DNA from: a virus
Lineage: Duplodnaviria > Heunggongvirae > Uroviricota > Caudoviricetes
Reading direction: 5' to 3' (one strand)
DNA: 64,000 bases
IMG/VR virus record: IMGVR_UViG_3300037067_004861
A model generated the notes under the pieces. It worked only from the letters and a program-made list of their open reading frames with translations, was not told where the DNA came from and searched no databases. Made by a program: the position numbers and the translations under genes. This document shows positions 318-53,197 of the stretch, one piece after another. How positions within the stretch are numbered: the first letter of the stretch is position 1; the number at the start of each line of letters is the position of its first letter.

Positions 318-345
318 TCCTGGAATCCTGGAATCACTGATTCCT
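318..345. promoter_or_regulatory. Cluster of GGAATCC / GAATCAcTGATTC half-sites; member of the palindromic motif family GGAATCC-N-GGATTCC
   Basis: ggaatcctggaatcctggaatcactgattcc; related palindromes at 988, 1111, 4351 and 4946. Confidence 0.4.
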
Positions 346-514
346 AGAGGGTGACGCATACCTTGGCGTAGAAGCCCTCGCGTTCATCGTCTCCCTCTTG
401 ATAGGGGTCGATGATGAAACGAGAGGGGCCAGCCAACCACACTCCAACACCGCGTTGCAGTTCTTGACTGAGAACGGCGGCTGCCCGCCTAGCCTCATCA
501 TAGGTAGCGTACAT
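344..514 (-). CDS. Small hypothetical protein (about 56 aa); ends ...VTL* with GTCACCCTCTAGGA at the gene junction
   Basis: ATG at 514 preceded by aggagg-like RBS (ctaggaggaaagacc); same strand as neighbours; below the 60-aa ORF-track cutoff. Confidence 0.3.
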   Translation of the reverse strand: MYATYDEARRAAAVLSQELQRGVGVWLAGPSRFIIDPYQEGDDEREGFYAKVCVTL

Positions 515-525
515 GGTCTTTCCTC

Positions 526-855
526 CTAGAGGGTGACACGCAGGACGCCACCGTTAGGGCTATCGCTCAGAGCAATCATGGCGTATCGGCGTTGTCTACG
601 TTTGAAGTAGGCTATGGCCCGTTCGATCGTCCAGGGCTCCTGGAGCGGGATGCGGTAACTCTTGGGGCCGGCCTCAAGGATCATCGTGTTGGCTGTAACG
701 GTTGCGTTCATCGTAGTGCCCTCCAAGATAGACGTACTAACGGAAGAGGTGGTCGTTCCTAGCAAAAAAGGAAGCTTGGGCCCGTTTCTCTTCGGCACGC
801 AGGTATCGGGGAATCCTAGATTCACGACGTCGCTCGGGCAAGTAGCGGGCGACAA
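526..855 (-). CDS. Hypothetical protein; C-terminus ...RVTL*; stop is followed by a GGAGG RBS for the 344..514 ORF
   Basis: ORF track; GC-rich block; start uncertain (alternative frame 737..901 encodes a 54-aa membrane peptide coupled by ATGA to 898..1131). Confidence 0.35.
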   Translation of the reverse strand: MSPATCPSDVVNLGFPDTCVPKRNGPKLPFLLGTTTSSVSTSILEGTTMNATVTANTMILEAGPKSYRIPLQEPWTIERAIAYFKRRQRRYAMIALSDSPNGGVLRVTL

Positions 856-897
856 CCAAAGCTAGGACAGCCAAGATAGCGGAGACGGTCAAAGTAG

Positions 898-1131
898 TCA
901 TGGTTTGTCCTCCCTTTCTACTTCAACTATACCACGGAATCGGTGGTTGTCAAGTCTTTTTAAGAAAGAAAAGGATTTTAATATCCAAGAATCCGGGAAT
1001 CCCGGATTCTTTACAATCCTAGGCATGGGTGGATTGTTGTCGATCCATCCGGTGCAACCAGTCAAATCTTGGCAACCTATGCAACCTATGCAATCGGTGC
1101 AATCTCCACAATCCAGGATTCCCGGCTTCAC
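898..1131 (-). CDS. Cys-rich protein with CGDCTDCIGCIGC...GCTGWIDNNPP motif; related to 1468..1722 and 9517..9768; GTG start
   Basis: Shares the G[KC]TG[WY]xxNxPP tail with the other Cys-rich ORFs. The C-terminal 40 aa read through the palindromic DNA motif, so the reading frame or extent is doubtful. Confidence 0.3.
   Translation of the reverse strand: MKPGILDCGDCTDCIGCIGCQDLTGCTGWIDNNPPMPRIVKNPGFPDSWILKSFSFLKRLDNHRFRGIVEVEREDKP
988..1012. promoter_or_regulatory. Perfect 12-1-12 palindrome AAGAATCCGGGA-a-TCCCGGATTCTT; candidate operator
   Basis: Direct reading; belongs to the GGAATCC-N-GGATTCC motif family. Confidence 0.45.
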
Positions 1132-1411
1132 GGTTACATGCGTTTCTCGATTACACGCATCTTTGACGCTATTTTAATTGCTTCTTTTTTTCAAAAATGG
1201 CGAATCTTTGGGAATCCTTCGTAGCTGATTCCTGTTGAACGTCGCTAACGAGGCGACGGAGGGCCACTAATTCCTCAAGGCCCTGGGCCAAGCCCGCCCA
1301 GGTAGCTTGGCGAGGAGGAAGAGAGCAGACACGTTCGATGCGTTTACTGTCAATCATGGTACCCTCTCCCCTTCTACTCAACTCTACCACATTGCCCAGC
1401 CTTGTCAAGGA

Positions 1412-1435
1412 TATTCTGATAAAAATATCAGAATA
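1412..1435. promoter_or_regulatory. 10-4-10 palindrome TATTCTGATA-aaaa-TATCAGAATA next to a TTGACA hexamer
   Basis: Direct reading; intergenic between 1169..1408 and 1468..1722. Confidence 0.35.
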
Positions 1436-1467
1436 TCACAACCCAGGTTGCTATTATGACAATAATA

Positions 1468-1722
1468 TCATTTCCGTGGTTTGTTCCGATAGTAGCCCGT
1501 CTTGCCAACCAGCTCAAAACATTCGGCACAATCGACACAATCCACACAATCCTCACAGTCACTGCAGAAGTCACAATTGGTACATCTCTTGCATCGCTCA
1601 CTTTTGCTACAAAGTGTGCAATCCGTACAATCCCTACAACTAACACAACCAGCACAATTCTCGCAGTCCCCACAATACTGCGAATCCGGACAATCGAGAC
1701 ATTTGATATTAGTATCAGACAT
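1468..1722 (-). CDS. Cysteine-rich repeat protein, (DCxxC)n, about 24 Cys in 84 aa; C-terminal GKTGYYRNKPRK
   Basis: ORF track; CxxC periodicity every 3 residues; paralog of 9517..9768. Confidence 0.55.
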   Translation of the reverse strand: MSDTNIKCLDCPDSQYCGDCENCAGCVSCRDCTDCTLCSKSERCKRCTNCDFCSDCEDCVDCVDCAECFELVGKTGYYRNKPRK

Positions 1723-1786
1723 GGTACAATCCGTAAACAGAGAAAGAGGGGCAGCCTAGGTTTCCTAGGCTGCCCCTCCGAATGGG

Positions 1787-2821
1787 TTAGGCGTTGACTA
1801 CCTCTTTCGAGGCTTCCATAGCCTCCTGCAGAAGGGTATCAATCTCAACGTCGCCAACGTGTCGGCGGAGAGTGGCGAGGGCCGACGCCGCAATCTCCAA
1901 GGAGACGGCGTAATCGTCACAATCCGTCAACGTCTCCCCGCCCTGCCCGGTTGCCGCCAAGAGGACTCTCTTGACAATCTCCGATCGGGCCGTTTGGCCA
2001 CGGTCAACCGCCTGCTTGGGGGTAAGGCTCTTGGCCGTCTGGGTGGCCTCGTCCCCCTTGTCCTTGGGGGACATCACCTCATCCCACGCTACACGGAATA
2101 GGGGGCCGTCGCCCGCCGGGTAGTTAGCGTATTCCTTGCCAAACACGCCGAACAGACCGTTGATCTTCTGCCATTGCATCGGTGTGGATTTTGGCGAATA
2201 CACCGCTTTTTCCATTTCCGATTGAACGAATTGGGGCAGCCGGGCCAGGTTGGCACGAATCTGCACATAGCTCCGATTGGGGGCACCGGGGGTTTTGCCT
2301 TTGGTGTGGAAGATGCCGAGGATAGTGGCAATCTCCGCCTGCCCCTCTCCGATGCCAACAAGCTGCCGGATAGCCAAAAACTGGCTCCACTGGTCCAACG
2401 GCTCCCGGTCGGCGGCTGGGTCGTGGTCGATCCGGAGTCGGGTTTCCTCCGCTTCGGTGAGGCCCTTGTAAACGATACAGGGCACCTTCCCACCACCCAG
2501 AACCTCGGCGTAGGTGCCGGGCTCATTGTCCCGCAAAAATTGCAGGCTCTTGGCCCTCCGGTTGCCCCTCAAAACGAGATACTGGCCGTCGCTCTTCTCA
2601 CTCACCATAAGCGTCGAATCGGGCTGCCAGCCGTGCCTCTTGATGAGGTCGATCATGCCGGGAAGGTTGTAATTACGCTCGTCTCGGGGGTTGCCCCCGA
2701 AAATGAGGGCGTCAACCGGAACAAGCGTCGTCGTCTGCTTAGCCATTTCAATCACTCCAAACAAAACAAAGGGAACAAGGGGAACAAAGGGGAGAGGAAT
2801 GATATTATAATCAATCCTCAA
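1787..2821 (-). CDS. ParB-like N-terminal (sulfiredoxin-fold) nuclease-domain protein; likely true start at Met26 (about nt 2746, MAKQTTT)
   Basis: LVLRGNRR motif (ParB GxxRxxA box); GC-rich codon usage unlike most of the window; promoter-like TGATTATAATATC at 2800. Confidence 0.6.
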   Translation of the reverse strand: MRIDYNIIPLPFVPLVPFVLFGVIEMAKQTTTLVPVDALIFGGNPRDERNYNLPGMIDLIKRHGWQPDSTLMVSEKSDGQYLVLRGNRRAKSLQFLRDNEPGTYAEVLGGGKVPCIVYKGLTEAEETRLRIDHDPAADREPLDQWSQFLAIRQLVGIGEGQAEIATILGIFHTKGKTPGAPNRSYVQIRANLARLPQFVQSEMEKAVYSPKSTPMQWQKINGLFGVFGKEYANYPAGDGPLFRVAWDEVMSPKDKGDEATQTAKSLTPKQAVDRGQTARSEIVKRVLLAATGQGGETLTDCDDYAVSLEIAASALATLRRHVGDVEIDTLLQEAMEASKEVVNA

Positions 2822-3023
2822 ATTGCTGTATATCCTTACAAACGATCAGAACGTAAGAGGCCACGTATCCGAAAGCCGCCGATGCCAGGGCACGGAAGGG
2901 GTCAAAATCATTGTGAACGGCACTAACCGCGAAAACCGTCGACAACAGAGCAAACGGAAGAGTCGCCAAAATCGAGATAACCTGCATTGTCGGCCTCACT
3001 AGGAAAAGTGATACTATTGTCAA
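2811..3023 (-). CDS. Small hydrophobic hypothetical protein (two predicted TM segments)
   Basis: ORF track; minus-strand array. Confidence 0.35.
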   Translation of the reverse strand: MTIVSLFLVRPTMQVISILATLPFALLSTVFAVSAVHNDFDPFRALASAAFGYVASYVLIVCKDIQQFED

Positions 3024-3220
3024 TTGTTATCCTCACCAGTCACAACCCGGATAACCGGATGCCCATCGTCGAGCACGCCACTGGCAACAGAGGCTTGGCT
3101 AAGGCCGGCTGCAAATAGATCATCATCGGTATCATCCATGGAAACCGTTACAGTGCAGTCCAATTGCCACGGTTGCAACAATTGCAACGCCGAGAGTAGT
3201 TCGCGGTAGGTTGGCAACAC
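3020..3220 (-). CDS. Small acidic hypothetical protein
   Basis: ORF track; lies downstream of a consensus promoter at 3271..3298; 4-nt start/stop overlap with 2811..3023. Confidence 0.4.
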   Translation of the reverse strand: MLPTYRELLSALQLLQPWQLDCTVTVSMDDTDDDLFAAGLSQASVASGVLDDGHPVIRVVTGEDNN

Positions 3221-3270
3221 TTTCCGATACCCCTCTTGTGGGTGGTGTGGTAACTCTCGGCCTCTACTCC

Positions 3271-3298
3271 ATTATACCATGGCCTGGCATCGTGTCAA
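3271..3298 (-). promoter_or_regulatory. Sigma70-type promoter on the minus strand: TTGACA-16 nt-TATAAT
   Basis: Reverse complement reads ttgacacgatgccaggccatggtataat, with both hexamers consensus; upstream of 3020..3220. Confidence 0.65.
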
Positions 3299-3329
3299 GA
3301 GGAATTGTAAAGATTCCAGGAACCACCCA

Positions 3330-3668
3330 TTAGAGGGGTAGTTCTTCCACCAGCCACGAACTACTATCCTGATCGTAGGAACCGTTTTGATCCCCATGAT
3401 TGACAGCGTCGTAATTGCCGCGAAGAACGGAATCCCGGGCCTCATCGCTATGAGTGGCATAAACTGTGTAAACGGAATAACTCACACTTGGAACCGACAC
3501 GATGAAGCGCCTGAGTCCGGCAGCCTTGGCGAACCTCTCGGGGACGAACCGTGGGTTGGCTATCGAGGCCACGTCCATCACGGCATCGGCAATTGCCTGT
3601 TTGTTCATTTTATCCGGTTCATCCAGGATAATCCGAGCAAACTGCACTAAGTCTTTTTTCGTTAGCAT
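3330..3668 (-). CDS. Hypothetical protein (112 aa)
   Basis: ORF track. Confidence 0.4.
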   Translation of the reverse strand: MLTKKDLVQFARIILDEPDKMNKQAIADAVMDVASIANPRFVPERFAKAAGLRRFIVSVPSVSYSVYTVYATHSDEARDSVLRGNYDAVNHGDQNGSYDQDSSSWLVEELPL

Positions 3669-3672
3669 AGGT

Positions 3673-3948
3673 TCACTCCATATATTCGGAAGAATTGAGT
3701 GAGGCCGTTAAAGTCGCTACATCCGGAACCTTGAGAATCAAGAACCGCTCGATGTCCAGGGGCGACCATTCCTCGCCGGTGGCATCCTCAGTGATAGCCT
3801 GCACATTCCGCAAACCATGCAGCATCACTACAACCCTCAATGCCTCGCCGAGGGTCATGGACTCGATGGTGTGGGTGCTCTCGGCACCGGGCTGTTTGAG
3901 AGCGGAGCGGGATCGTTGGACGCGAAGAGAGAACCGTTGCAACGTCAT
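3673..3948 (-). CDS. Hypothetical protein (91 aa)
   Basis: ORF track; lies downstream of the promoter at 3999..4027. Confidence 0.4.
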   Translation of the reverse strand: MTLQRFSLRVQRSRSALKQPGAESTHTIESMTLGEALRVVVMLHGLRNVQAITEDATGEEWSPLDIERFLILKVPDVATLTASLNSSEYME

Positions 3949-3998
3949 CGTAGATCATCCTAGGATATGAGGAAGAGGGTGTTTGCCCCGACACCACT

Positions 3999-4027
3999 AT
4001 CCTACCATGGCTAGGGCCAGGTGTCAA
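3999..4027 (-). promoter_or_regulatory. Sigma70-type promoter on the minus strand: TTGACA-17 nt-TAGGAT; paralogous to the promoter at 3271..3298 (shared ACCATGGC...GTGTCAAGA context)
   Basis: Reverse complement reads ttgacacctggccctagccatggtaggat. Confidence 0.55.
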
Positions 4028-4081
4028 GAAGAAAACCGGTGGAATTGTTTGTTTCGATTCTAAGGGCAGTATATTCTACAG

Positions 4082-4172
4082 CCAGGTGCCAGGTGCCAGG
4101 TGTCCGGTGTCCGGTGTCCGGTGTCCGGTGTCCGGTGTCCGGTGTCCGGTGTCCGGTGTCCGGTGTCCGGTG
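4082..4172. repeat. Heptamer tandem repeat: (ccaggtg)x3 then (tccggtg) about x10
   Basis: Direct reading; ORF 4021..4479 is its translation artefact. Confidence 0.9.
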
Positions 4173-4220
4173 GGATTATGACAACATAGGTTTGATATTT
4201 TACACACCCTTTAGCGGGGT

Positions 4221-4350
4221 AGGGATTGTAACAATAATAGGGATTGTAACAACAATAGGGATTGTAACAATAATAGGGATTGTAACAATAATAATGATTT
4301 TAAGGATTGTAGTGATTTTAAGGATTATTACGGTTATTACGGTTGATTTT
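4221..4350. repeat. 18-bp tandem repeats (agggattgtaacaataat, x4) followed by shorter gattttaaggatt and ttattacgg repeats
   Basis: Direct reading. Confidence 0.85.
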
Positions 4351-4372
4351 AGAATCCAGGATTCACTGATTC

Positions 4373-4476
4373 CTATACGCACACCTACCCCGGCGCTCCC
4401 GGGCAGAACGAGAATCGTACTTTCAAAGCATAACTATACGCACACCTACCCCGGCGCTCCCGGGCAGAACGAGAAT
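4373..4476. repeat. Two copies of a 43-bp direct repeat (tatacgcacacctaccccggcgctcccgggcagaacgagaat), each holding a CCCGG-cgctc-CCGGG hairpin, separated by about 20 nt
   Basis: Direct reading. Confidence 0.85.
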
Positions 4477-4718
4477 TGAAAATGTAAAGAAAATGATGAT
4501 TTTGAAAATTGATTTTCAAATCATAATGTCATAATAATGAGAACACTATTGGACAATGGTTAATCTCTTATGACGCTAGAACGCCGTCTCACGCCCTCCA
4601 ACGCCCCAATGGCTCCCAAGACCAAAATGGGAAATGGGCTCCCTAGGCACGCAGCTAGGGCCCTTAAAAGGGAATCCGTAGCCGTGGCCACGGAAGCCGC
4701 GAGGGGTAGCCGGGAAGT

Positions 4719-4812
4719 CCATAAATAATAATACTTTTTCCTATTCCCCTATAGGGCATTTTTATTAGAAAGAGCCCTATAGGGGAATAGGAAAAAGTAT
4801 TATTATTTATGG
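4719..4812. repeat. Perfect inverted repeat with 38-bp arms (ccataaataataatactttttcctattcccctatagggc) and a 17-nt spacer; cruciform or hairpin-forming
   Basis: Right arm 4774..4812 is the exact reverse complement of left arm 4719..4756. Confidence 0.9.
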
Positions 4813-4945
4813 AGAGGCTAAGTCTAGGCTACGGCTAGACTTACGGAATTATACTGTTTTTATGTCCACCTTCACATAACTATTGTCCAATAGTGAACTC
4901 ATCATTATTTGGCCTTTTAGAGCTTTTTAGAGCTTTTAACGAAAA

Positions 4946-4974
4946 GCAGGAATCCAGGATTCCTGGATTCCTGC
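4946..4974. promoter_or_regulatory. Palindrome gcaGGAATCCaGGATTCCtggattcctgc; strongest copy of the GGAATCC-N-GGATTCC motif
   Basis: Direct reading. Confidence 0.45.
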
Positions 4975-4994
4975 AACAATTAAACTAAGAATTA

Positions 4995-5354
4995 TTAAAC
5001 AATTCTTTTCGTCAGCTCAGGAAGTGCAACCTCAGTAATAAGATTATTCTCAACTAGGAGGTCAACAATCTCAATGGCTACGCCGTCAACAAACGCTTCT
5101 TCATTAAGAACCACTTCTTTTAAAAGCATGGGGTTGCGATCCAAGACTCCGTGAATCAACTCGTGGATCAAGGATTCAAGGATGCACCGATTCGGTTGCT
5201 CAGTACATACTCTAATGGTCCTGCTATTATAATCAATATAACCTAAGTACTTCTTGTCTTCACAGTTAATAACCGTGGGTACTTCAGCACTCTGAGCCAC
5301 ATATTCAATAGTGTAATCCACACCCCTAATAGTAATAGCAGTAGGTAGTTTCAT
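4995..5354 (-). CDS. Putative zinc metallopeptidase (HExxH: LIHELIHGV), ImmA/IrrE- or SprT-like
   Basis: HELIH motif in a 119-aa protein. Confidence 0.4.
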   Translation of the reverse strand: MKLPTAITIRGVDYTIEYVAQSAEVPTVINCEDKKYLGYIDYNSRTIRVCTEQPNRCILESLIHELIHGVLDRNPMLLKEVVLNEEAFVDGVAIEIVDLLVENNLITEVALPELTKRIV

Positions 5355-7159: not shown

Positions 7160-7162
7160 TTT

Positions 7163-7232
7163 CTTGCCTTCTTAATCTTGCCTTCTTAATCTTGCCTTCT
7201 TAATCTTGCCTTCTTAATCTTGCCTTCTTAAT
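7163..7232. repeat. 14-bp tandem repeat (cttgccttcttaat) x5; overlaps the 3' end of ORF 7200..7511
   Basis: Direct reading. Confidence 0.9.
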
Positions 7233-7511
7233 CTGATCTTTGTTTTCAAAATCCTGATAATAATAGATTTTACCGTTTTCGTCCTTAATATAACCGGCTT
7301 CCGGAAATTCAAATACTCTTCCATCTTCTAGAGCCCCGGCGTCTTGGTACAATTCCGCAAGAAGTTTACTAATCTTCTTAATCTTTGATTTTAACATCTT
7401 GTCGTCAGCTAGAATATGATCTACGATCTCTCTTTCAAAGATATCCATAACAAGATAAGCACGGTCGGTCATCTCGTGATAGTGCCATCTATCTAGTGGT
7501 GTTTTATTCAT
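7200..7511 (-). CDS. Hypothetical protein; C-terminus is encoded by the tandem repeat
   Basis: ORF track. Confidence 0.4.
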   Translation of the reverse strand: MNKTPLDRWHYHEMTDRAYLVMDIFEREIVDHILADDKMLKSKIKKISKLLAELYQDAGALEDGRVFEFPEAGYIKDENGKIYYYQDFENKDQIKKARLRRQD

Positions 7512-7710: not shown

Positions 7711-8652
7711 TTATCCCCTAGTCATGTCATTAAAGAGCTGGTCATCGCCGTTATCCGTAATAGAACTGTCCAAAGCTAGGCATCGTGCAGCGCTTTCCTC
7801 TTCTGATAAATCCCTGAAAATCCAACCACTCAGAATCACGTCCCAAGCATTGCTTATGTTAATGAACAATGCGTCTTGGTATTCCGGTGATATCCGCAGC
7901 CGATGGGTTGCGAACCGCAGCCGGGAGGCCGGACCACATATCTGGTCAATACCCGTAATCATGTCCGGCGATCCAATTGGCTCGCCAAGAAGCCATGAAT
8001 AAATAGACAACTGGTCCGCCCAGCCCCTATCCCCGTCTTCTAGGTGCATGGCGATATTGATATAAACGCCACGAACCTTTTGGAGATGGCAGTCCTTATG
8101 AATCTTGTAATCCACGCCGCCGTTTTCACGGAGCTTCACGAAGCCACGCATAGGACTCTTTAACGAATTACTACAGTAGCCGTTGACTTTCCAATCATAA
8201 ATGACCCGAGCCCCGTCTTCATTGATAAAGAAAATATCAGGCTTACCTAAGAGAGGCACACCCTCGATATCTCCCTTGATACTAAACTCGAATCGAGGAG
8301 GCCCGACTGCGGCCTCTAGCTCCAAAAGTAAGTCTGCTAGACACCCCGTGTTCTTATAGGCTTCAAAGACCTTCTTGCCTTCTTCCCACGCCCACGTCCT
8401 GTTATGTTCCTCGACTTGGGAATTGAAAATATCCTTGAGCGCGTATCCGTGACTCTCGGCTTCCGCGGCTCCGAACAGCTTTGTATAAAGGTAACTTTTG
8501 ACGTAGGCGTCGAACGCACTACCAATACTCATTGGCTTAGTTTGCGGTTCTCTTGGCGACCGCACGTCGCTAAGGTATCTACTATAAAAGAGTTCAATAT
8601 CATCGTAGAACAGCTTAACGCTGGTTGGACTCATGTATTCCGGAAGTCTCAT
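7711..8652 (-). CDS. PD-(D/E)XK superfamily nuclease (RecB/Cas4/phage-exonuclease-like)
   Basis: Motifs IGSAFDAYVK ... GKPDIFFINEDGARVIYDWK (D...D/ExK). Confidence 0.5.
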   Translation of the reverse strand: MRLPEYMSPTSVKLFYDDIELFYSRYLSDVRSPREPQTKPMSIGSAFDAYVKSYLYTKLFGAAEAESHGYALKDIFNSQVEEHNRTWAWEEGKKVFEAYKNTGCLADLLLELEAAVGPPRFEFSIKGDIEGVPLLGKPDIFFINEDGARVIYDWKVNGYCSNSLKSPMRGFVKLRENGGVDYKIHKDCHLQKVRGVYINIAMHLEDGDRGWADQLSIYSWLLGEPIGSPDMITGIDQICGPASRLRFATHRLRISPEYQDALFINISNAWDVILSGWIFRDLSEEESAARCLALDSSITDNGDDQLFNDMTRG

Positions 8653-8680
8653 AATTATTATGCTTTCTTTTTATGCTTTC

Positions 8681-8827
8681 TTATAGGGAATAGTTGAGAG
8701 TTCTACGGACAATGTATCCTATGAGAGCAAATGGACTTAAAAGTATCACCCCTACTATCACTATTGGGCTTATAAAGATAAGAACACCTATGCCAAGATA
8801 ACCTAGGAAACGGTCAAAATTATTCAT
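8681..8827 (-). CDS. Small membrane peptide (48 aa); ATGA start/stop overlap with 8824..9060
   Basis: Manual translation. Confidence 0.3.
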   Translation of the reverse strand: MNNFDRFLGYLGIGVLIFISPIVIVGVILLSPFALIGYIVRRTLNYSL

Positions 8828-9060
8828 GCTTGCTCTATGGATAGTGTACTCTTAATCAGGAAGGCACCGGTCATATCTGTATCATAATCTTTATTATTAT
8901 CATTCTCCGGAACTATACTAGCAATATAGACGTTACAGCCCCAGTAGTATCGGCATTCATCCCAATCAAAAGTTAAAAACTCTAAACCCCTATCGCCCCA
9001 TCGGGCATAATGATAGTTAGTTAATGTGAATGGCTTCATAGTGTTAAAAATCTCTCCCAC
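8824..9060 (-). CDS. Hypothetical protein
   Basis: ORF track. Confidence 0.4.
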   Translation of the reverse strand: MGEIFNTMKPFTLTNYHYARWGDRGLEFLTFDWDECRYYWGCNVYIASIVPENDNNKDYDTDMTGAFLIKSTLSIEQA

Positions 9061-9245
9061 CTATCAATAATACGCTCCGTATCTTCGGTGATAGGACCGG
9101 GCTCCCTGTCAGCATAGGCGACTTCATCGGGGACAGCCGTAACTACAATCCCTCCGGGCTTGATAATCGTACAATTACTTCCAGGAATCTCCAACTTCGC
9201 TAATAGGGTTAGGAGATTTCGCTTACTTAGAAGGACGTGATCCAT
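9036..9245 (-). CDS. Hypothetical protein
   Basis: ORF track; TGATTATAATATC motif immediately upstream (9247..9260). Confidence 0.4.
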   Translation of the reverse strand: MDHVLLSKRNLLTLLAKLEIPGSNCTIIKPGGIVVTAVPDEVAYADREPGPITEDTERIIDRWERFLTL

Positions 9246-11689: not shown

Positions 11690-12478
11690 TTATAATATCC
11701 TCGCTGCCTTATTCGTCCAAGAATACGTCAATTCTCCATTAGGCCAGAAGATCAGTTGACGCTGTTTCCGAGGATTCACGGATTCGGTGAGGCAATTACT
11801 CACGGCGACGTTGTATCCTTGGTAATTATAAACACGGAGACCGTAATCGTACTCCAATAACAAATCCGCATAACCCTCTAAACAGTCTCTAAGCCAATCT
11901 AATGAAGAATGGAACTCCGTGGCATGACTTACTTCACGGAAGGTCGACTGCATGACTCCGGGAGTCGTGATAACATTAACCATATCCCCTAAATTAGTGA
12001 CGCCACCTTTAACCACGGTGACGTTAAGACGCACAGCCAAGCCAGCCTTGTTAGCATAAGCAATGACCTTACGATAGTCATAGTCTTCCGGGAGACCCAT
12101 TAACTGATTATTGATTATATTATCGGGATGGGCGATAGATAGGCAAAGCGTAGTGAGACCGTTCTCTTCTAATTGTGCAACTCCGGCTTCTGATAATAGG
12201 GCCCCGTTAGTCATTAACTCAATGAAGTCAAAGCGGTAACGATGCAATCGTTCCGTGTACTCTACTAAGAGGTCCCAATGCAGCGTCGGCTCACCTTTTC
12301 CGGTGAGAATCGCGGTATCCGTGATTCTATTAGCCCAGGCACAAACCCTATTGAAGCGGTGCCAATTGGGGGTTAATGTAAGATCGAAATTGGTTTTAGT
12401 TCTCTTGGCTATGCACCAAGGGCAGGAGGCGTTGCACTTCTTATCCCCAACGACAACGGAGAAAGTATCGAAATTCAT
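11690..12478 (-). CDS. Radical SAM enzyme (small; QueE-, NrdG- or PflA-activase-like)
   Basis: N-terminal CNASCPWC (CX3CX2C) and GKGEPTLH (GGEP-like) motifs. Confidence 0.6.
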   Translation of the reverse strand: MNFDTFSVVVGDKKCNASCPWCIAKRTKTNFDLTLTPNWHRFNRVCAWANRITDTAILTGKGEPTLHWDLLVEYTERLHRYRFDFIELMTNGALLSEAGVAQLEENGLTTLCLSIAHPDNIINNQLMGLPEDYDYRKVIAYANKAGLAVRLNVTVVKGGVTNLGDMVNVITTPGVMQSTFREVSHATEFHSSLDWLRDCLEGYADLLLEYDYGLRVYNYQGYNVAVSNCLTESVNPRKQRQLIFWPNGELTYSWTNKAARIL

Positions 12479-25395: not shown

Positions 25396-25773
25396 TTAAA
25401 TTAGAAACTCCGCTACTTCACAGAGTAGACTCTTGTTGGTTTGGCTGGCCCGGACGACGCGGAGACTCTTAACTTTGACAGTATTATCAGTGATGGGGCA
25501 CCGTCGGAGAACCTCAGCCCGTGCTTTCGGCATAAGGATACATTTCAAGCCAAGATGTGTAAGATGCTCCGAATCCTGGAGACGCCATTCTGGTTCAATT
25601 TCCGTGATTTCCGGAACGAAGGCCCTACCATAAATAAAGGGAGGCTTGTTCTCCGTAACCTCTACCGTGAGTATGGCTTCACCATTCATCGCCGTGAGAA
25701 TACTATCAACGGCTGGCACGGTAGACAATACATTGCGGTACTTCTCAGACCAATCACTTAGACTCATTTTCAT
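25396..25773 (-). CDS. Hypothetical protein
   Basis: ORF track. Confidence 0.4.
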   Translation of the reverse strand: MKMSLSDWSEKYRNVLSTVPAVDSILTAMNGEAILTVEVTENKPPFIYGRAFVPEITEIEPEWRLQDSEHLTHLGLKCILMPKARAEVLRRCPITDNTVKVKSLRVVRASQTNKSLLCEVAEFLI

Positions 25774-26302
25774 ATCTCCTAGCTAGTCTCTGACGAATCT
25801 TGGATACTTCACTTCGCGTTATCTTCAACGTCTTGGCTGTTTGGGTATCGGTGAGCCCGGAACGCCGGCACTCCACCACAGATCGTTCAATAGGGAGTCG
25901 GATAATAGCATCAATCGTGTCCTCGAACTCCAACTCATCGAATGGATTCGCGGATGCAATATCCTCTTCTATTGAAGAATACTTGAAATTAGCCTTGCGT
26001 TTCGGTGTCCGGATAGCAGCATTATTATGGATGGCTTGACAACAAGCGTCCTTAATCATGCTGCATAGGTATGATGTGATATTTCTATCATTACGTAGTT
26101 TGTGAACGGCTCGCACTAATCCTAGAGTCGCGGAATCCAGCATCTCCTCGTAGTCGTGCGTGAACCGGGAGTAGTATTCCGAGAACCTAAGAACATATGG
26201 CATATGACATAGGATAAGGGCGTCATAGTTTTCACTGTTCTTATATTCGATTAAAATATCATCGCTTGGGTGTGGCGGAAAAGTCACGTTTTCGTACATC
26301 AC
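25754..26302 (-). CDS. Sigma-70 family RNA polymerase sigma factor (phage-encoded; ECF-like, regions 2 and 4)
   Basis: Region 2: YEEMLDSATLGLVRAVHKL...SYLCSMIKDACCQAI. Region 4 HTH: LTDTQTAKTLKITRSEVSKIRQRLARR. Confidence 0.6.
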   Translation of the reverse strand: MMYENVTFPPHPSDDILIEYKNSENYDALILCHMPYVLRFSEYYSRFTHDYEEMLDSATLGLVRAVHKLRNDRNITSYLCSMIKDACCQAIHNNAAIRTPKRKANFKYSSIEEDIASANPFDELEFEDTIDAIIRLPIERSVVECRRSGLTDTQTAKTLKITRSEVSKIRQRLARRYENESK

Positions 26303-26707: not shown

Positions 26708-27394
26708 TTATACCTCTGCCAGAACTTCAAATTCCTTGCAACGCCACTTATCCCCGGCCCTATGGATATCTGTCTTCTTCGTCCTAACCTTGATAATGGG
26801 GCCACGAGAATTGGTGTTTGACTCTTGAAATTTCAAGACCATGGCAACCGTAGGGTAAAGATAGAGGCCAGGATGGCATTCGGTCTTGCAGGTGGAGAAA
26901 TATGGAGCCTTTACTTTATCTCCAACACTATAGCTACCACTATTCAAACGCCTTTTAGAGCGATAACCGATAATATAATCACCATCCTCCTTGAATCCTC
27001 TGTAATCTGTGTTTAATGTGTTCCTGGGATCAAGAGCAGTATGGTTGATGTTGGCCTCAGTGAGATTAATATCATAGAGGTCCGTTTCTTGCAGATAGGC
27101 TCCTTGGAGATTGGCTCCATGGAGGTTAGCTTCCCATAGATATGCGTATAGGAGATTAGTACCTTGGAGATTGGCCCCTGGGAACTGGGACTGCATTAGT
27201 ACAGCTCCTTGGAGATTGGCTCCTTGAAGATTGGCTCCTTGGAGATTGGCTCTTCGGAGATCGGCTTCTCGAAGATTGGCGCCTCGGAGATCGGCTTCCC
27301 GGAGATCGGCCTCATAGAGATTAGCTCTTTCTCCACCTTCTCTATCTTGTAGCCAAAGACTATGCTTTTCCAGGGCGACTTTAATATCAATCAT
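26708..27394 (-). CDS. Pentapeptide-repeat protein with a conserved unrecognised C-terminal domain (paralog 1 of 3)
   Basis: A(D/N)LxxA(N/D)L repeats; C-terminal DYRGFKEDGDYIIGYRSKRRL...TECHPGLYLYPT...KWRCKEFEVLAE is shared with 27408..28148 and 28599..29399. Confidence 0.7.
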   Translation of the reverse strand: MIDIKVALEKHSLWLQDREGGERANLYEADLREADLRGANLREADLRRANLQGANLQGANLQGAVLMQSQFPGANLQGTNLLYAYLWEANLHGANLQGAYLQETDLYDINLTEANINHTALDPRNTLNTDYRGFKEDGDYIIGYRSKRRLNSGSYSVGDKVKAPYFSTCKTECHPGLYLYPTVAMVLKFQESNTNSRGPIIKVRTKKTDIHRAGDKWRCKEFEVLAEV

Positions 27395-27407
27395 GGCTTA
27401 ACCCTTA

Positions 27408-28148
27408 TTATTCATACTCTGCCAGAACTTCAAACTCCTTGCAACGCCACTTCTTACCAGCCTTATGAATATCTGTCTTCTTCGTTCTTACCACAATTAT
27501 AGGGCCCCAAGAATTGGGATTTCCTCTTTGAAAGTTCAATACCATCTCTATTGTAGGGTAGAGATAAAGGCCCGGATGGCATTCTGTCGTACAGGTGGAG
27601 AAGTAAGGGGCTTTTACTTTCTCTCCGATACTGTAGTGACCACTATTCAAACGCCTTTTCGTCCGGTATCCGATAATATAATCACCATCCTCCTTGAAGC
27701 CTTTATATTCCATATTCAAGGTATTTCTTGGGTCCAGAACAGTACCGGTGATCCTGGCCCTGGTGAGATTAGTTCCGTAGAGGTCAGTTTCCTGTAAACA
27801 GGCTCCTTGGAGATTGGCTTCAGAGAGGTCAGCTCCCGATAGATGTGCGTATAGGAGATTTGCCCATTGAAGGTTGTTTTCTCGAAGGTTGGCCTGCATT
27901 AAGTAGGCTCCGCTGAGTGAGGCTCCTTTGAAATTAGCTACTTGAAGATCGGCCCCATGGAATGTAGCATAGGAAAGATTAGCATATTGTAGGTTGGCAC
28001 CACGTAGGTCGGCTTTGGTGAGATCAGCATTTTGAAGGTCAGCTTCGCGGAGATCGGCTCCTAGGAAATTTGCTCGCTCTCCGTCCGGATCACCGTGAAG
28101 CCACTTCCTATGGGAATCTAGAATGCCTTTAATAGTGATATCAATCAT
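27408..28148 (-). CDS. Pentapeptide-repeat protein with the same C-terminal domain (paralog 2 of 3)
   Basis: See 26708..27394. Confidence 0.7.
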   Translation of the reverse strand: MIDITIKGILDSHRKWLHGDPDGERANFLGADLREADLQNADLTKADLRGANLQYANLSYATFHGADLQVANFKGASLSGAYLMQANLRENNLQWANLLYAHLSGADLSEANLQGACLQETDLYGTNLTRARITGTVLDPRNTLNMEYKGFKEDGDYIIGYRTKRRLNSGHYSIGEKVKAPYFSTCTTECHPGLYLYPTIEMVLNFQRGNPNSWGPIIVVRTKKTDIHKAGKKWRCKEFEVLAEYE

Positions 28149-28151
28149 AAT

Positions 28152-28493
28152 TTAACCTTTAAAATCAATTACACCGTACTCAGAGTTGGTGATAGTGTAA
28201 TAGCAACGTCGGACGCCAACCATTTGCATAAATGATCGGCAGGTCCGACAGGGTGTCGCATTAGCGTAGTCACCATTCTTTAGGACACGGACGACATAAA
28301 CAATAGAACCCTTATCCAACTTCCTGCACAATCGGGCTTCGGCATGAGCCTGCGGTTCCGGATATCGGCAAGGCAGATTAGTTGATTTTACTATCGTTCC
28401 ATCGGCCCTAAGTCCCACGGCTCCGATACAATATCTCCTGATATCATTCTTTTTGATAGCAATACGTTCGGCTAATCGGAACATGCGTTTCAT
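28152..28493 (-). CDS. Cytidine/deoxycytidylate deaminase-fold zinc enzyme (CDA, dCMP-deaminase or TadA-like; 113 aa)
   Basis: Zinc-binding motifs HAE and PCxxC (HAEARL...ATPCRTCRSF). Confidence 0.6.
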   Translation of the reverse strand: MKRMFRLAERIAIKKNDIRRYCIGAVGLRADGTIVKSTNLPCRYPEPQAHAEARLCRKLDKGSIVYVVRVLKNGDYANATPCRTCRSFMQMVGVRRCYYTITNSEYGVIDFKG

Positions 28494-28518
28494 GGTTGTA
28501 TATCTTTAATAGTAAAAG

Positions 28519-28591
28519 TAGGACGGGAAGGAATCGAACCTTCGGCCACGACTTTATAAGAATCGCACTCTAACCACTGAGTTACCGTCCC
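28519..28591 (-). tRNA. tRNA-Ile (anticodon UAU)
   Basis: Hand fold: acceptor GGGACGG/CCGTCCT (G1-U72), D-stem ACTC/GAGT, anticodon arm CGATT-CTTATAA-AGTCG, T-arm GAAGG-TTCGATT-CCTTC. Confidence 0.75.
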
Positions 28592-28598
28592 ATTCCTT

Positions 28599-29399
28599 TT
28601 AGTATTCTGTCTCGGACAGGACTTCAAACTCCTTGCAACGCCACTTGTCTCCCGCCCTATGAATATCCGTCTTCTTGGCTTTCACTTTAATGATAGGACC
28701 TGCTAGGGAGGTACTGTGGGTATACATAAAGTTTAATACCATTTGAACCGTGGGGTAGAGGTAAAGACCTGGATGGCATGGAGAAAAGCTAATAGAGAAG
28801 TAAGGTGACGTAACTTTCTCCCCGACTGTGTATTCCCCATCGTTCATAAGACGCCTTTTCGTCCTGTATCCGATAATATAATCACCGTCCTCCTCAAATC
28901 CTTTGTAGTCTCTATTAGGCGTATTACTTGGATTGAGACAAGTGCGGATGAGATCGGCTCCTTCTAGATCAGCCCCATAGAGGGCAGTCTCAGAGAGAGC
29001 AGCCCAACGGAGATCGGCTCTTTGGAGATGGGCATTTTGAAGGTCAGCTTCTCGGAGATCGGCTCCTTGGAGATTGGCTCCTTGGAGATCGGCTCCTTGG
29101 AGATTGGCGTAACATAGTTTTGCATGTTGTAGATTCGCTTTTTGGAGACAGGCATATTTAAGATTGGCTTCTCGGAGATCGGCTTCTTGTAGATTGGCTC
29201 CTTGGAGATTAGCGTGACATAGGGTGTTCCCTCTTAAACTAGCATAAGAGAGATTGACTCCTGGAAGATCGGACCCATTTAGAATGACTCCTTGGAAATT
29301 TGCTCTTTCTCCACCCTCTATATTCTTGAGCCAAAGACTGTGCTTTTCCACGGTGGTTTTAATATCAATCATTGTATTTCCTAAATTAGAGTTATCCAT
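28599..29399 (-). CDS. Pentapeptide-repeat protein with the same C-terminal domain (paralog 3 of 3)
   Basis: See 26708..27394. Confidence 0.7.
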   Translation of the reverse strand: MDNSNLGNTMIDIKTTVEKHSLWLKNIEGGERANFQGVILNGSDLPGVNLSYASLRGNTLCHANLQGANLQEADLREANLKYACLQKANLQHAKLCYANLQGADLQGANLQGADLREADLQNAHLQRADLRWAALSETALYGADLEGADLIRTCLNPSNTPNRDYKGFEEDGDYIIGYRTKRRLMNDGEYTVGEKVTSPYFSISFSPCHPGLYLYPTVQMVLNFMYTHSTSLAGPIIKVKAKKTDIHRAGDKWRCKEFEVLSETEY

Positions 29400-29614: not shown

Positions 29615-29652
29615 ATCATCGCATGGATCAAATATATGACCCATGCGATGAT
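29615..29652. promoter_or_regulatory. 12-bp-arm inverted repeat ATCATCGCATGG-13 nt-CCATGCGATGAT in AT-rich intergenic DNA; GATATTATTATCA motif follows directly
   Basis: Direct reading. Confidence 0.4.
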
Positions 29653-29666
29653 ATTATTATCAATTT

Positions 29667-29820: not shown

Positions 29821-29974
29821 GCAGTAACCTCTTGTGGGTGGCCGGGGCTATACCACTATATTACCATGGATTCGCGGAATCTAGGGAGAAAACTATGAAG
29901 ATTATGGATTATAGGATTTTGATATTGATATTACTATAATCGGAATAATGATATTATTATCAAAAATAATATTA

Positions 29975-38718: not shown

Positions 38719-39543
38719 CTAAACCTCTACATCCTCGAAAGGCAACACATAAGGGATACCCTTATCCCGTGCGGCCCGTTTGATATCAAAATATAAGTCA
38801 GCACTACTGATATTACCGTTCGCCCAGGCCAGGGCTCGTGTAACTAAACTATAACCAAGCGTATCCCCGATATGCTTTATCATATCCTGTACTGTCGATA
38901 CGGATTGACGTTTCTTGACGAAGGGGCGTTGGGCTGGCTTCTTCCCAACATCCAAACCCTTTTGCCCATTAAGAAGTGAAGTCTTGATTTTCCTAACAGC
39001 CGCGTACTGATCGTCTGCACTGTCGAGAGTAGCTAATTGCCTAATCTGATATTGATTCAGAACACCAGCCGCGGCCTCCTCTTGAATCTCTTTCGGTAGT
39101 TTGAGTAAGTCTAAACGCACCTGTACCCAAGACCGTGACTTACCCAATTCTTTAGAAATTTGATCTTGAATTAGACCTAATCCCCTTAGTTTCTCTACCG
39201 CATGAGCCTCCTGCAGAATATTCAGTTCTTCGCGTTGCAGGTTCTCCGTGAGGTTGAGTAATCGGGCTTGTAGTTCGGATAACCCCGTCCGAATCATCGC
39301 TGGAATCTCAGTCTTCTTCAAGACGCGGCAGGCAGCGAACCGTCTGTGACCAGCAATGATTCTATAATCATAATTGGGTCCACTAGTTAGCGGTTGGACA
39401 GTAATAGGGAACTGTAGACCATTACGGTCTATGTCCTTGGCTAATTCGGAGACACTAAGTAAGGAGATAGTACCCCTGCAATTGAAATCACTATCACTAA
39501 AAATACGATTGATAGGTATGTTTTTTACTTGATAATCATCCAT
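38719..39543 (-). CDS. ParB-like nuclease-domain/HTH protein
   Basis: YRIIAGHRRFAA (ParB box) followed by an HTH region; adjacent to the DNA methyltransferase. Confidence 0.6.
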   Translation of the reverse strand: MDDYQVKNIPINRIFSDSDFNCRGTISLLSVSELAKDIDRNGLQFPITVQPLTSGPNYDYRIIAGHRRFAACRVLKKTEIPAMIRTGLSELQARLLNLTENLQREELNILQEAHAVEKLRGLGLIQDQISKELGKSRSWVQVRLDLLKLPKEIQEEAAAGVLNQYQIRQLATLDSADDQYAAVRKIKTSLLNGQKGLDVGKKPAQRPFVKKRQSVSTVQDMIKHIGDTLGYSLVTRALAWANGNISSADLYFDIKRAARDKGIPYVLPFEDVEV

Positions 39544-39773: not shown

Positions 39774-40535
39774 TCATGCTCGGCTGATAGGAAGCCCGTG
39801 CTCCTCGGAGATGTTCCGGCAATAGGTGCTGTCCAGGTCGATCAGCGTGCATGACCGGCCGATTCGCTCGCAGACACGCAACGTCGTGCCGGTGCCGGCG
39901 AACGGGTCAATGACGGTGTCGCCCATCTTGGTGCTGAACAGCAAGCACCTTTCGACCAACCCCTCGTTAAGCTGTGTCGGGCACCATGGCCGGCGCTGCT
40001 TCGAGTTGCCGGTGACTCTCGGGAAGTCGAACACATCGCCCGGAACACGGCCTCGTGGATCAGCCCTCTTGTCTCCGTTCTCCTGCCGCCAGGAGGGCAC
40101 GCGAATGGCGTCGGGGTAGAACGCGGCATCGGGCCACCACAGACGAAGCAACGGGCGGTGGTTGTTCCCGAAGTCGTGATGGTTGTGCTGGCCGAACGTG
40201 AAGGTCTGGATGCAATTTTTGGCCGATAGTCGCGGGTTGGCTTTCAGTAGCCTCCAGACGATCATGCCCATGGCGAAACTCCACTTGGAGTTGTACGACA
40301 TCCACACCACGGGGGCCTTGCCAACGAACGCTTGAAGAAGCGTGTCGAGAAGATCAACATACTCATCGTCTGGCAGGTTGTCGTTGTGTTCGCTGTAGCC
40401 GAGCTTGATGTTGTCCGGCGGATCGGCGAAAATGCAATTCGCGTTCGGGATATGCTCAAGGACGTGAAGGCAATCGCCGTGGTAGAGATAGTGCATGATT
40501 AGTTTCCTAATTATCGAAACCCAGTAAGAGAGCAC
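39774..40535 (-). CDS. DNA methyltransferase (N6-adenine or N4-cytosine, beta class); conspicuously GC-rich gene
   Basis: Motif IV IFADPPDN precedes motif I IDPFAGTGTT; GC far above the surrounding genes, so the track shows many overlapping spurious ORFs. Confidence 0.7.
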   Translation of the reverse strand: MLSYWVSIIRKLIMHYLYHGDCLHVLEHIPNANCIFADPPDNIKLGYSEHNDNLPDDEYVDLLDTLLQAFVGKAPVVWMSYNSKWSFAMGMIVWRLLKANPRLSAKNCIQTFTFGQHNHHDFGNNHRPLLRLWWPDAAFYPDAIRVPSWRQENGDKRADPRGRVPGDVFDFPRVTGNSKQRRPWCPTQLNEGLVERCLLFSTKMGDTVIDPFAGTGTTLRVCERIGRSCTLIDLDSTYCRNISEEHGLPISRA

Positions 40536-46769: not shown

Positions 46770-46846
46770 CTTAGAAACCTCTTTTAAAGAGAAAAGAAAA
46801 TGATTTTAGTCTCACTTACTAAAATCATACAATACACGGAGTTGAT

Positions 46847-47272
46847 AATAATATCAAAGATCGAAATGTCGAAATATCAATATCAAATGGCAATAATCAA
46901 TATCAAAATAAAACCTACATAAAAGCCCGGTAGCAATACATATAGGACATATACGCCTATACTGCGGCGTCAAAACCCATAAAATAAGAAAACCTTTTCC
47001 CCTTTCCCTACAGGGCCTTCTCCTCTTCAATTAGCCCCTGGGGCAGAATAGGAATAGTTTTCTTATTTTATTCGACCATACAACCGTTAGATACCCTATA
47101 TGTATACGTACCCCCAACTTACGAAAGGTTTGGGCATCCGGACGCCACAACACAACAATATAGATGAATAAGACTTCCATAAATGATATTGATTATTTCA
47201 ATTTGATTTTGATATTTTGGTTTTTCGTATTTTGATATTATTATCATTCCACCTATTAGTGATATTATTATC
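46847..47272. promoter_or_regulatory. Origin-like divergent intergenic region: AATATCAA/ATCAATATCA iterons (46847..46908), the same iterons inverted (47184..47240), central nested inverted repeats, 2x GATATTATTATCAT before the primase ATG
   Basis: Direct reading; lies between the parB-like gene and the primase-helicase gene. Confidence 0.55.
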
Positions 47273-53138: not shown

Positions 53139-53154
53139 CATAATCTAAAACACA

Positions 53155-53197
53155 AAAACCGTACATCAGAAATTCTGATGTACGGTCTTTTTATTTA
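53155..53197. terminator. Bidirectional rho-independent terminator (accgtacatcagaa-a-ttctgatgtacggt hairpin with T-runs on both strands)
   Basis: Direct reading; separates the converging plus-strand operon and the minus-strand tail module. Confidence 0.7.

Follow-up and report, generated by a model that had tools for sequence, protein, structure and literature searches.

A repeat-rich, non-coding kilobase between two operons of a landfill-leachate phage: a likely DNA control or replication-type site

We describe a region of about 1 kb, at positions 3999 to 4994 of a 64,000-nucleotide sequence of a tailed phage (IMG/VR record IMGVR_UViG_3300037067_004861; the whole of this sequence is called the window below). 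The region is real and conserved, behaves as non-coding, and is most likely a DNA control or replication-type site and not a genome end or packaging site. We go further only tentatively, and read it as a composite cis-acting hub in which a terminator, a palindrome module of origin or ParB type and a promoter region tuned by repeats would lie next to each other. A preliminary description of this DNA treated the kilobase as a single object, and here it has to be revised, as there are at least three: a terminator, a module framed by inverted repeats, and the region that controls the next operon. The repeat classes that it listed between 4020 and 4990 are all present where it put them, and to these we add an outer inverted repeat, an inverted repeat of GGAATC type that brackets it, and a block of 24% GC.

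The region lies between two operons. Genes from 47 kb to 5 kb are nearly all leftward, as a ~42-kb early/replication operon that runs to the terminator at 4946-4974, and the other side of the region is occupied by the promoter (4027-3999) that heads a GC-rich accessory island. Past the island, and behind another repeat-rich gene-free stretch, comes the late operon with its lambda-type terminase. An 85,038-bp contig, 100% identical to the window except for one tandem-repeat length difference, has both ends inside the heptamer array of the region, and since these overlap by 44 nt we take the map to be a circle of about 84,994 bp. Annotation covers about 72 kb of it, outside the interval from about 64 to 77 kb, and what is said below on gene content refers to the annotated part.

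With regard to relatives, only two diverged strains were found, among 5.8 billion proteins, and each spans half of the region. L009 is a 962-bp Logan contig, about 90% identical, that covers 5360-4449. L035 is an 8,699-bp viral scaffold from another landfill, about 80% identical, that covers 4529 leftward through the island to the terminase. As a neutral yardstick, which is a rough one, we used the third-codon-position identity of flanking genes, 82.5% for L009 and 61-78% for L035. Identity in the unique non-coding blocks is 96-100% as against 61-83% at synonymous sites, and by this measure the AT-rich block, the 43-bp units, the GGAATC operator and the promoter are conserved well above synonymous sites. 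The arrays, unlike the unique blocks, change both unit and number between strains. The features are as follows, with strand where there is one.

4027-3999, minus strand: sigma-70-type promoter, TTGACA-17-TAGGAT, TG-extended, 10/12 and the best of the promoter scan
4081-4172: heptamer array, (CCAGGTG)3(TCCGGTG)10, hypervariable in unit and number
4173-4219: unique block between the arrays, with TGTCATAAT (extended -10-like, minus strand) and TTTGATATTTT; 46/47 identical in L035
4220-4350: 9-bp periodic array, 18-bp TAGGGATTGTAACAATAA four times and then degenerate units
4351-4374: palindromic operator cluster of GGAATC type, GAATCCAGGATTCACTGATTCC; 25/25 identical in L035
4352-4374 and 4948-4970: inverted repeat of GGAATC type that brackets the outer inverted repeat
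4373-4415 and 4434-4476: 43-bp direct repeat units, each with CCCGG-N5-CCGGG, and a non-conserved spacer between them
4477-4530: AT-rich block, 24% GC, with palindrome ATGATGATTTTGAAA/TTTTCAAATCATAAT
4531-4562 and 4877-4908: outer inverted repeat, 28/32 (88%), that brackets the GC-rich stretch and both hairpins
4531-4562: left arm of the outer inverted repeat, 2 nt to the right of the end of the L035 contig
4563-4717: GC-rich core, about 60% GC, 5' half conserved and 3' half variable
4718-4813: large palindrome, with 40-nt perfect arms, a 16-nt AT-rich asymmetric loop, and CCCTATAGGG in each arm
4820-4842: small hairpin aagtctag-N7-ctagactt; in L009 one change lengthens the stem and one gives G.T
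4843-4870, minus strand: candidate leftward promoter block, perfect TATAAT at 4853-4848, weak -35; ends 5 nt before the small hairpin
4877-4908: right arm of the outer inverted repeat, which holds the 16-bp near-palindrome ACTATTGTCCAATAGT
4946-4974, minus strand: intrinsic terminator, 13-14-bp stem with 8 GC pairs, 3-nt loop, tail TTTTCGTT, with GGAATCC units
46976-47075: degenerate paralogue of the large palindrome, at the centre of gene-free 46770-47272, the ParB / primase-helicase intergenic region

Anatomy and conservation of the region

Gene callers place a 152-aa ORF (4021-4479, plus strand) and a 52-aa ORF (4570-4728, plus strand) in the region, and both stay open in the diverged strains. 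In the unique parts of the 152-aa ORF the five or six substitutions relative to the 80% strain are all non-synonymous, with none synonymous, and the identical 43-bp units fall in different frames of this ORF. In the case of the 52-aa ORF the changes relative to the 90% strain are at codon positions 1 and 2 only and only non-synonymous, the C-terminus has been rebuilt by a compensated frameshift, and a homology search of 5.8 billion sequences found only the ORF itself. On the substitution patterns of the two ORFs we treat the region as non-coding, which supports the original view that it is gene-free, and the two gene calls in public annotation are probably spurious.

At the right-hand end the terminator (4974-4946 in the direction of reading) is a GC-rich stem-loop followed by a U tract, found on the minus strand only and 20 nt after the stop of the neighbouring upstream gene, which encodes a 119-aa HExxH protein (4995-5354). 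These are the properties of an intrinsic terminator, and all 29 bases are identical in L009 (29/29). The palindromic site GGAATCCaGGATTCC at 4949-4963, which had been listed as an element in its own right, is indeed there, but it is part of this terminator-like hairpin. Further to the left, the TATAAT at 4853-4848 is a candidate leftward promoter; its -35 matches at only 3/6 positions, and for that reason it was not listed by the promoter scan. The segment 4814-4876, which includes the TATAAT block and the small hairpin (arms 4820-4827 and 4835-4842), is 59/63 identical in L009.

Within the inverted-repeat-bounded module the GC-rich stretch at 4560-4715 has 59.6% GC, compared with 43.6% for the whole region, and includes the palindrome ccgtggccacgg at 4682-4693. 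The 5' half of the GC-rich core is 69/73 identical in L009 and the 3' half 61/81, with ccgtggccacgg not kept. The outer inverted repeat has one compensatory change in L009 (T-A to C-G). Next to the module on the left is the AT-rich block, a candidate DNA-unwinding element and/or promoter region. The stretch 4449-4530, which takes in this block and a repeat unit, is 82/82 identical in L009, and in L035 40/40 aligned bases of the block are identical and there is one 13-nt deletion. The two 43-bp units are identical to each other and 61 bp apart, and in L035 they are 41/41 and 39/41 identical, with 13/18 plus 8 gaps for the spacer. The 43/61-bp repeat is present as a single copy in contig L003, which is the same phage from one sample, and as two copies elsewhere. 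A 22-mer of the unit had one chance match in the JGI metagenome collection (on a contig of 72% GC) and no match among GTDB genomes. We considered whether these are type III antitoxin-like repeats and rejected this, as they fold no better than shuffles.

The left third of the region begins with the operator cluster at 4351-4374, of which there is a near-copy at 314-346, on the other side of the island. Sites of the type GGAATC-N3-GATTCC occur 27 times in the window, where 3.2 would be expected, and 13 of the 27 fall in the first 5 kb; the simplest reading is that they are operators for a single regulator. The possibility that GGAATCC is the -35 for a phage ECF-type sigma factor was discarded, as a matching -10 is not conserved in L035. 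The 18-bp tandem repeats form an array of 4.1 copies at 4220-4293 that runs on as a degenerate 9-bp periodic array to about 4350, and in its place L035 has (TAGGGATTG)x7. In the unique block that follows, TTTGATATT is a sequence that recurs in the arms of the 46.8-47.2 kb region.

The heptamer array is perfect (TRF, 100% matches) and lies about 55 bp upstream of the -35 of the sigma-70 promoter. This promoter serves the first island operon, of which the first gene (91 aa) has its start at 3948, 50 bp downstream, and the promoter core is kept in L035. The L035 array has different units, reading (CGGCTCC)7(TGGCACC)~11 on the minus strand, and exceeds that of the window by 33 nt. A perfect array near a promoter that differs in length among relatives is what is found at simple-sequence contingency loci. 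When a plasmid collection was searched only the simple heptamer repeat matched.

Assemblies of the phage break in this region, with contigs that end at the arrays and the palindrome, and the region thus explains why they do so. Four contigs end inside the heptamer array or at its edge, and the ends of short contigs fall in the heptamer array, in a 15-bp array at 66-303, or inside the palindrome. This is the behaviour of short-k-mer assembly at repeats, and such ends are therefore no evidence for termini.

Perfect 7-, 14- and 15-bp tandem arrays are also found in other intergenic DNA of the phage (7162-7234, 5879-5954, 6108-6137 and 66-303). The 14-bp array at 7162-7234 has three fewer units in contig ERZ27247358 k141_132697, with the remainder 100% identical, and we conclude that slippage is ongoing in the population.

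The large palindrome and its paralogue at 47 kb

The large palindrome had been reported as a perfect inverted repeat with 38-nt arms. The arms are in fact 40 nt (4718-4757 and 4774-4813), and at 96% the repeat can be followed over 45 nt. No perfect hairpin in the 64 kb is longer, and twenty shuffles of the window gave 9-13 nt; as single-stranded DNA the palindrome has a folding energy of -43 kcal/mol with z = -14. This is far beyond chance. Neither strand has a U tract after the palindrome.

Comparison with L009 shows three changes in each arm, which make two compensated pairs (C-G to A-T and T-A to A-T), one mismatch and one G.T. The 16-nt loop matches that of the window at 14/16 positions as reverse complement and at 6/16 directly. 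The inversion of the loop suggests that it is the symmetric arms that matter and not the loop sequence, and the compensated pairs and the flipped loop together indicate that stem or arm symmetry is maintained. With regard to the proposal that the palindrome be looked for in relatives, the stem is thus kept in L009 by way of compensatory changes, but the loop is inverted and ccgtggccacgg is lost.

When the palindrome was compared with the whole window by local alignment, one other site was found, at 46976-47075, with scores of 50 and 47; the next-best independent score was 23 (mean 17.8, sd 3.0). As a hairpin this paralogue is imperfect, with an outer stem that is perfect over 15 bp and a z of about -3.4. 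It is in a second gene-free region, 46770-47272, that has three inverted repeats nested in one another (the outermost, at 46843-46905 and 47184-47246, is 63 nt long with 84% identity), and that is flanked by divergent genes for ParB (45822-46769, minus strand) and primase-helicase (47273-50017, plus strand), each 200-300 bp from the palindrome. The two palindrome regions share only the hairpin, and their flanks are unrelated. The ParB protein encoded there and a second one (38719-39543, also minus strand) are of the ParB/Spo0J family, with 79.7 and 101.5 bits respectively against the TIGR00180 cut-off of 58.45, and have ParB_N and HTH_ParB domains. The gene at 38719-39543 adjoins one for an N6/N4 DNA methyltransferase (39774-40535). 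Exact-pattern scans of IMG/VR with the hairpin arm and with the paired outer arms found nothing, and the 25 loci that came up for CCCTATAGGG-N-CCCTATAGGG are without exception unrelated iteron-like or operator-like sites.

The sequence itself shows the anatomy, how conservation is distributed, the paralogy and the variability of the repeats, and it is from these that binding, replication and expression are inferred in what follows. The terminator would end the ~42-kb leftward operon. The ~380-bp module at 4531-4908, with the AT-rich block at 4477-4530 and the two 43-bp units, would be a site of replication or segregation type that is recognised by proteins. We suggest this because repeated units, a melting-prone AT-rich block and a palindrome with symmetric CCCTATAGGG boxes occur in order, and because the paralogue of the palindrome adjoins ParB and primase-helicase genes. 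Replication proteins of the phage, or proteins of ParB/KorB type, could load at both palindrome loci, which would make the one at 4.7 kb a second origin-like or ParB-loading site. The left third, 3999-4375, would be the control region of the first operon of the island, made up of the operator, the 9/18-bp array of binding sites and the conserved block, and the heptamer array with its changes of length would be a mutable spacer or tuning knob for the sigma-70 promoter of the island. As at iteron origins, the 9/18-bp array and the 2 x 43-bp units are beside the fully conserved 24%-GC block, and as in ParB-parS systems, the replicon encodes ParB-family HTH proteins. The palindromes CCCTATAGGG, ACTATTGTCCAATAGT and GGAATCCAGGATTCC do not resemble canonical parS. 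Of the four readings in the preliminary description (packaging region, second origin, telomere-like resolution site and non-coding RNA locus) it is the second origin that best fits the anatomy.

There are several points that weigh against the hub as we read it. No initiator gene is found beside the 4.7-kb copy, the nearest replication genes being more than 30 kb off, and no ParA was found in the annotated parts, which leaves classical partition unsupported. The GC skew follows gene orientation and has no origin signal. The arms of the outer inverted repeat are 27/32 and 28/32 identical in L009 (84-88%), which is about neutral, and of the five one-sided changes in stems four give G.U on the plus strand, which mildly favours RNA structure. 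Tandem arrays are common in the intergenic DNA of this phage, and some may be neutral products of slippage. The comparisons are with two relatives only, each of half the region, and neither covers the 47-kb paralogue. The palindrome centres, at 4.77 and 47.03 kb, are separated by 42,260 bp, against 42,497 bp for half of the circle, but this near-antipodal placement was noticed post hoc and we give it little weight.

A more elaborate version, which we think unlikely, is that the two palindrome modules work as a pair, in which both would be origins or one an origin and the other a terminus or resolution site. The 4.7-kb copy would be fired by transcription from the TATAAT through the G-cluster-rich segment into the AT-rich block, with RNA-primed initiation by the family-A polymerase as in ColE1 or T7, and the heptamers would set island expression; or else there could be a new large structured non-coding RNA of phage. 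Should the palindromes prove to be origins or ParB-loading sites, they would be a way into the organisation of replication or gene silencing in a phage with PolA, primase-helicase and three ParB-like proteins and no ParA. If the heptamers do tune the island promoter, this would be a clear case of contingency-locus logic in an accessory gene cassette of a phage.

Known systems and alternative explanations

In the lambda origin four iterons of about 18-19 bp are followed by an AT-rich stretch and then a palindrome, all inside the initiator gene. The order of parts is the same here, with an ~18-bp array of four copies, further units, the conserved AT-rich block and the palindrome. In contrast to lambda, the region is more than 30 kb from the replication genes, its array unit goes from 18 to 9 bp between strains, its palindrome is 96 bp long and not 28 bp, and it is only a candidate origin. 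The herpes simplex virus origins oriL and oriS are long palindromes between divergent replication genes; initiator boxes flank the AT-rich centre, and a genome has more than one such palindrome. The phage palindromes likewise have symmetric boxes and an AT-rich centre, and there are two paralogous copies, one of them between divergent genes of the replication module. Here we are dealing with a bacterial virus and unrelated proteins, and the resemblance is one of architecture only.

The plasmid-prophage N15 is reported to have dispersed palindromic centromere sites that bind SopB. It is, like this phage, one that encodes ParB-family protein and has palindromic sites scattered over regulatory and replication regions. 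In N15 the sites are about 16 bp and work with ParA (SopA), whereas here no ParA was found, the palindrome is six times longer, and the phage has no sign of a plasmid lifestyle. As to the inverted loop, small inversions of hairpin loops between inverted repeats occur in non-coding DNA of chloroplasts, where they are regarded as neutral by-products of the stem. The 16-nt loop that is reverse-complemented in the 90% strain, with the arms in place, is of the same form, although a phage genome is a different kind of genome.

For the heptamer array the closest comparison is with Haemophilus influenzae, in which 7-bp repeats upstream of hmw1A/hmw2A tune expression (PMC12721329, PMC2424069, PMC8262952). 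In both there is a perfect 7-bp array of about 10-18 units upstream of a gene, with length that varies among relatives and with long hairpins nearby. The phage array differs in that it is ~55 bp upstream of the -35 and has unit sequences that change between strains, and it is not known to be transcribed.

Turning to explanations other than the hub, the module at about 4531-4908 could be the gene for a structured non-coding RNA of roughly 200-380 nt that regulates the flanking operons or acts as an anti-defence or decoy RNA. This is the main rival to the hub, though a somewhat unlikely one, and it is a locus type named in the preliminary description. On the minus strand the RNA would start at the TATAAT, with the small hairpin as a protective 5' stem and the 40-bp stem as an RNase III-type site, and for a plus-strand RNA the start would be from the conserved AT-rich block. 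In favour of such an RNA, the module folds very stably (-179 and -184 kcal/mol, z = -14 and -12), a GC-rich patch within AT-rich intergenic DNA is typical of structured RNAs, the two-sequence consensus fold has three or four compensatory pairs and no broken pairs, the perfect and conserved -10 is located 5 nt before the small hairpin, and the one-sided changes discussed above are in 4/5 cases compatible with G.U on the plus strand. There is also a precedent in H. influenzae, where a 7-bp repeat and a long hairpin that is cleaved by RNase III work jointly within a 5'-UTR (PMC12721329). Such an RNA has however no convincing terminator on either strand, and Rfam gave no family match at either palindrome: in the window only tRNAs pass, and in the region there are only generic long-hairpin miRNA models, which score 35-49 bits where the cut-offs are 70-140. 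Between strains the loop is inverted and identity in the 3' half of the GC-rich core is only 75%, which is below synonymous sites, and the paralogue, between divergent genes, is a much poorer hairpin. Covariation cannot be established from two sequences, and the strand is ambiguous. We think it quite unlikely that the region is mostly a neutral by-product, in which the island would have been acquired by recombination, with slippage-prone junk around an ordinary terminator and promoter, and the palindrome would be selfish or an accidental duplication-inversion. The frequency of tandem arrays throughout the phage, the speed with which they change, the likeness of the array unit to the sequence over the -35 of the promoter, which suggests an origin by slippage, and the foreign GC content of the island are all in keeping with it. 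Against it are the identity of the unique non-coding blocks relative to synonymous sites, the maintenance of stems through compensatory changes, and the retention of the palindrome family at two loci.

Two further explanations give the inverted repeats themselves the leading part. That the module is an invertible promoter switch (inverton) that acts through the 32-nt inverted repeats, or a MITE-like insertion, is improbable. Close to one end of the 314-bp segment that the repeats surround there is indeed a perfect TATAAT, the inner hairpin demonstrably has its loop flipped between strains, and the L035 contig stops 2 nt from the left arm, as an assembly graph does at a polymorphic element. But all seven contigs across the module, the diverged L009 included, show a single orientation (these are assemblies, in which minority orientations are possible), there is no target-site duplication at the flanks, no second copy of the arms is present in the window or in IMG/VR, the arms diverge at the neutral rate, and the Pfam results for the parts examined include no serine or tyrosine recombinase or transposase. 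A genome terminus or packaging signal, be it a cos/pac site or a hairpin-telomere resolution site, is very improbable, and here two of the readings in the preliminary description fall away. Some cos/pac sites, and telRL sites, do have long palindromes and repeat clusters, the terminase is a lambda-type (cos) enzyme (GpA_ATPase), and several short contigs end in the palindrome or the arrays. These ends fall in repeats longer than the assembler k-mer, which makes them technical, and other contigs pass through at 100% identity. TerL (L006 8270-9955) is about 8.3 kb and about 17 genes away, past the island and six late genes, and the other gene-free, repeat-rich stretch is directly upstream of the late operon, so that packaging from here is unlikely. 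For a telomere the dyad symmetry should go through the centre, but the 16-nt centre ATTTTTATTAGAAAGA is not self-complementary and is inverted in L009; there is no protelomerase match in Pfam in the ~72 kb annotated (64-77 kb is outside), where the sole unassigned proteins above 440 aa (483 and 1027 aa) are in the tail module. In addition the paralogue is in the middle of the replication module, and the circle closes elsewhere, inside the 7-bp array. Two more candidates were tried and dropped: for a retron msr-msd there is no ORF downstream on the plus strand and no RVT match in the annotated parts, and for attP no integrase was seen.

The phage, its accessory island and other observations

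The window is from a tailed phage. Its genes encode a tape-measure protein, PolA (family-A) and an ATP-dependent ligase, together with a DUF5906 primase-helicase and an SNF2 helicase that carries an intein, and there are four tRNAs. Three ParB-like proteins, an ECF-type sigma factor, three pentapeptide-repeat proteins, and NYN and exonuclease domains came out of later scans. On the searches made the phage is novel, with almost no relatives in public data, and for that reason the cis-acting signals of its lineage are new ground. No relative of the window was found by DNA similarity in INPHARED in near or distant modes, the region had no match in IMG/VR, and the polymerase has no more than about 25% identity to its nearest counterparts in phages. 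Protein queries for related loci brought up no relatives in the case of the 119-aa neighbour, the ParB-like protein and the primase-helicase, and with TerL only relatives at 46% identity, without synteny. One of these distant relatives, L039 (TerL 46% identical, IMG/VR 3300040801), has gene-free stretches full of tandem and inverted repeats at 3526-4175 and 8015-9147, and one such repeat-packed stretch is directly upstream of the terminase genes. The HIP1 motif, considered as a sign of a cyanobacterial host, has 0 copies.

Exact-protein look-ups show that the same phage is present in several landfill-leachate metagenomes (for the identities of the samples see PMC12607003). An independent JGI contig covers 5617-1729 with 1 mismatch in 3,889 bases (99.97% identity), and the junction between the 41%-GC backbone and the DNA of 50-58% GC to the left of the region is thus real and not chimeric.

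The accessory island, at about 340-4020, has 50-58% GC in a phage of 41% GC and consists of small genes with TTGACA promoters of their own, among them genes for a ParB-like protein under strong constraint and for Cys-rich peptides with CxxC repeats. It is bounded by similar modules of array and GGAATC sites, at 66-345 and 4220-4375, in each of which a GATTGTA-type array is followed by GGAATC..CACTGATTCCTA. Pfam, NCBIfam and PADLOC gave nothing useful for the small flanking proteins except weak ParB-like matches of a 319-aa protein. This island protein has 98% amino acid identity between strains, with 89% nucleotide identity for the gene and 72% at third positions (L035).

There are four paralogous small CxxCxxC-repeat proteins that end in G-K-T-G-W/Y..N-K-P, encoded at 1468-1722 and 898-1131 (both minus strand) and at L006 4018-4283 and 4310-4578 (both plus strand). 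For at least two of the four the gene callers have annotated the opposite strand. As the phage carries a radical SAM enzyme (11690-12478), these proteins could be modified peptides.

The 14-bp site TGATATTATTATCA is found at 29649-29662, 29949-29962, 46843-46856, 47233-47246 and 47260-47273. This site and repeats of TGATATTGAT type are common to two intergenic control regions, at 29.5-30.0 and 46.8-47.3 kb, and the TGATATTATTATCA sites look like the operator family of another regulator. A further sequence, TGATTTTA, was considered as an intergenic motif and dropped, as it is mostly inside genes.

The SNF2-family helicase gene is at 42083-44389 (minus strand), and the intein splicing domain occupies residues 164-273 of the protein (Pfam Intein_splicing). 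The ECF-type sigma factor gene (25754-26302, minus strand) adjoins those for the three pentapeptide-repeat proteins (26708-29399, minus strand), which have 15/45-bp DNA repeats. Lastly, at 53148-53196, the meeting point of the rightward replication genes with the leftward tail genes, there is a hairpin with 24-nt arms and with A and T runs on both sides, which is likely to be a bidirectional terminator.

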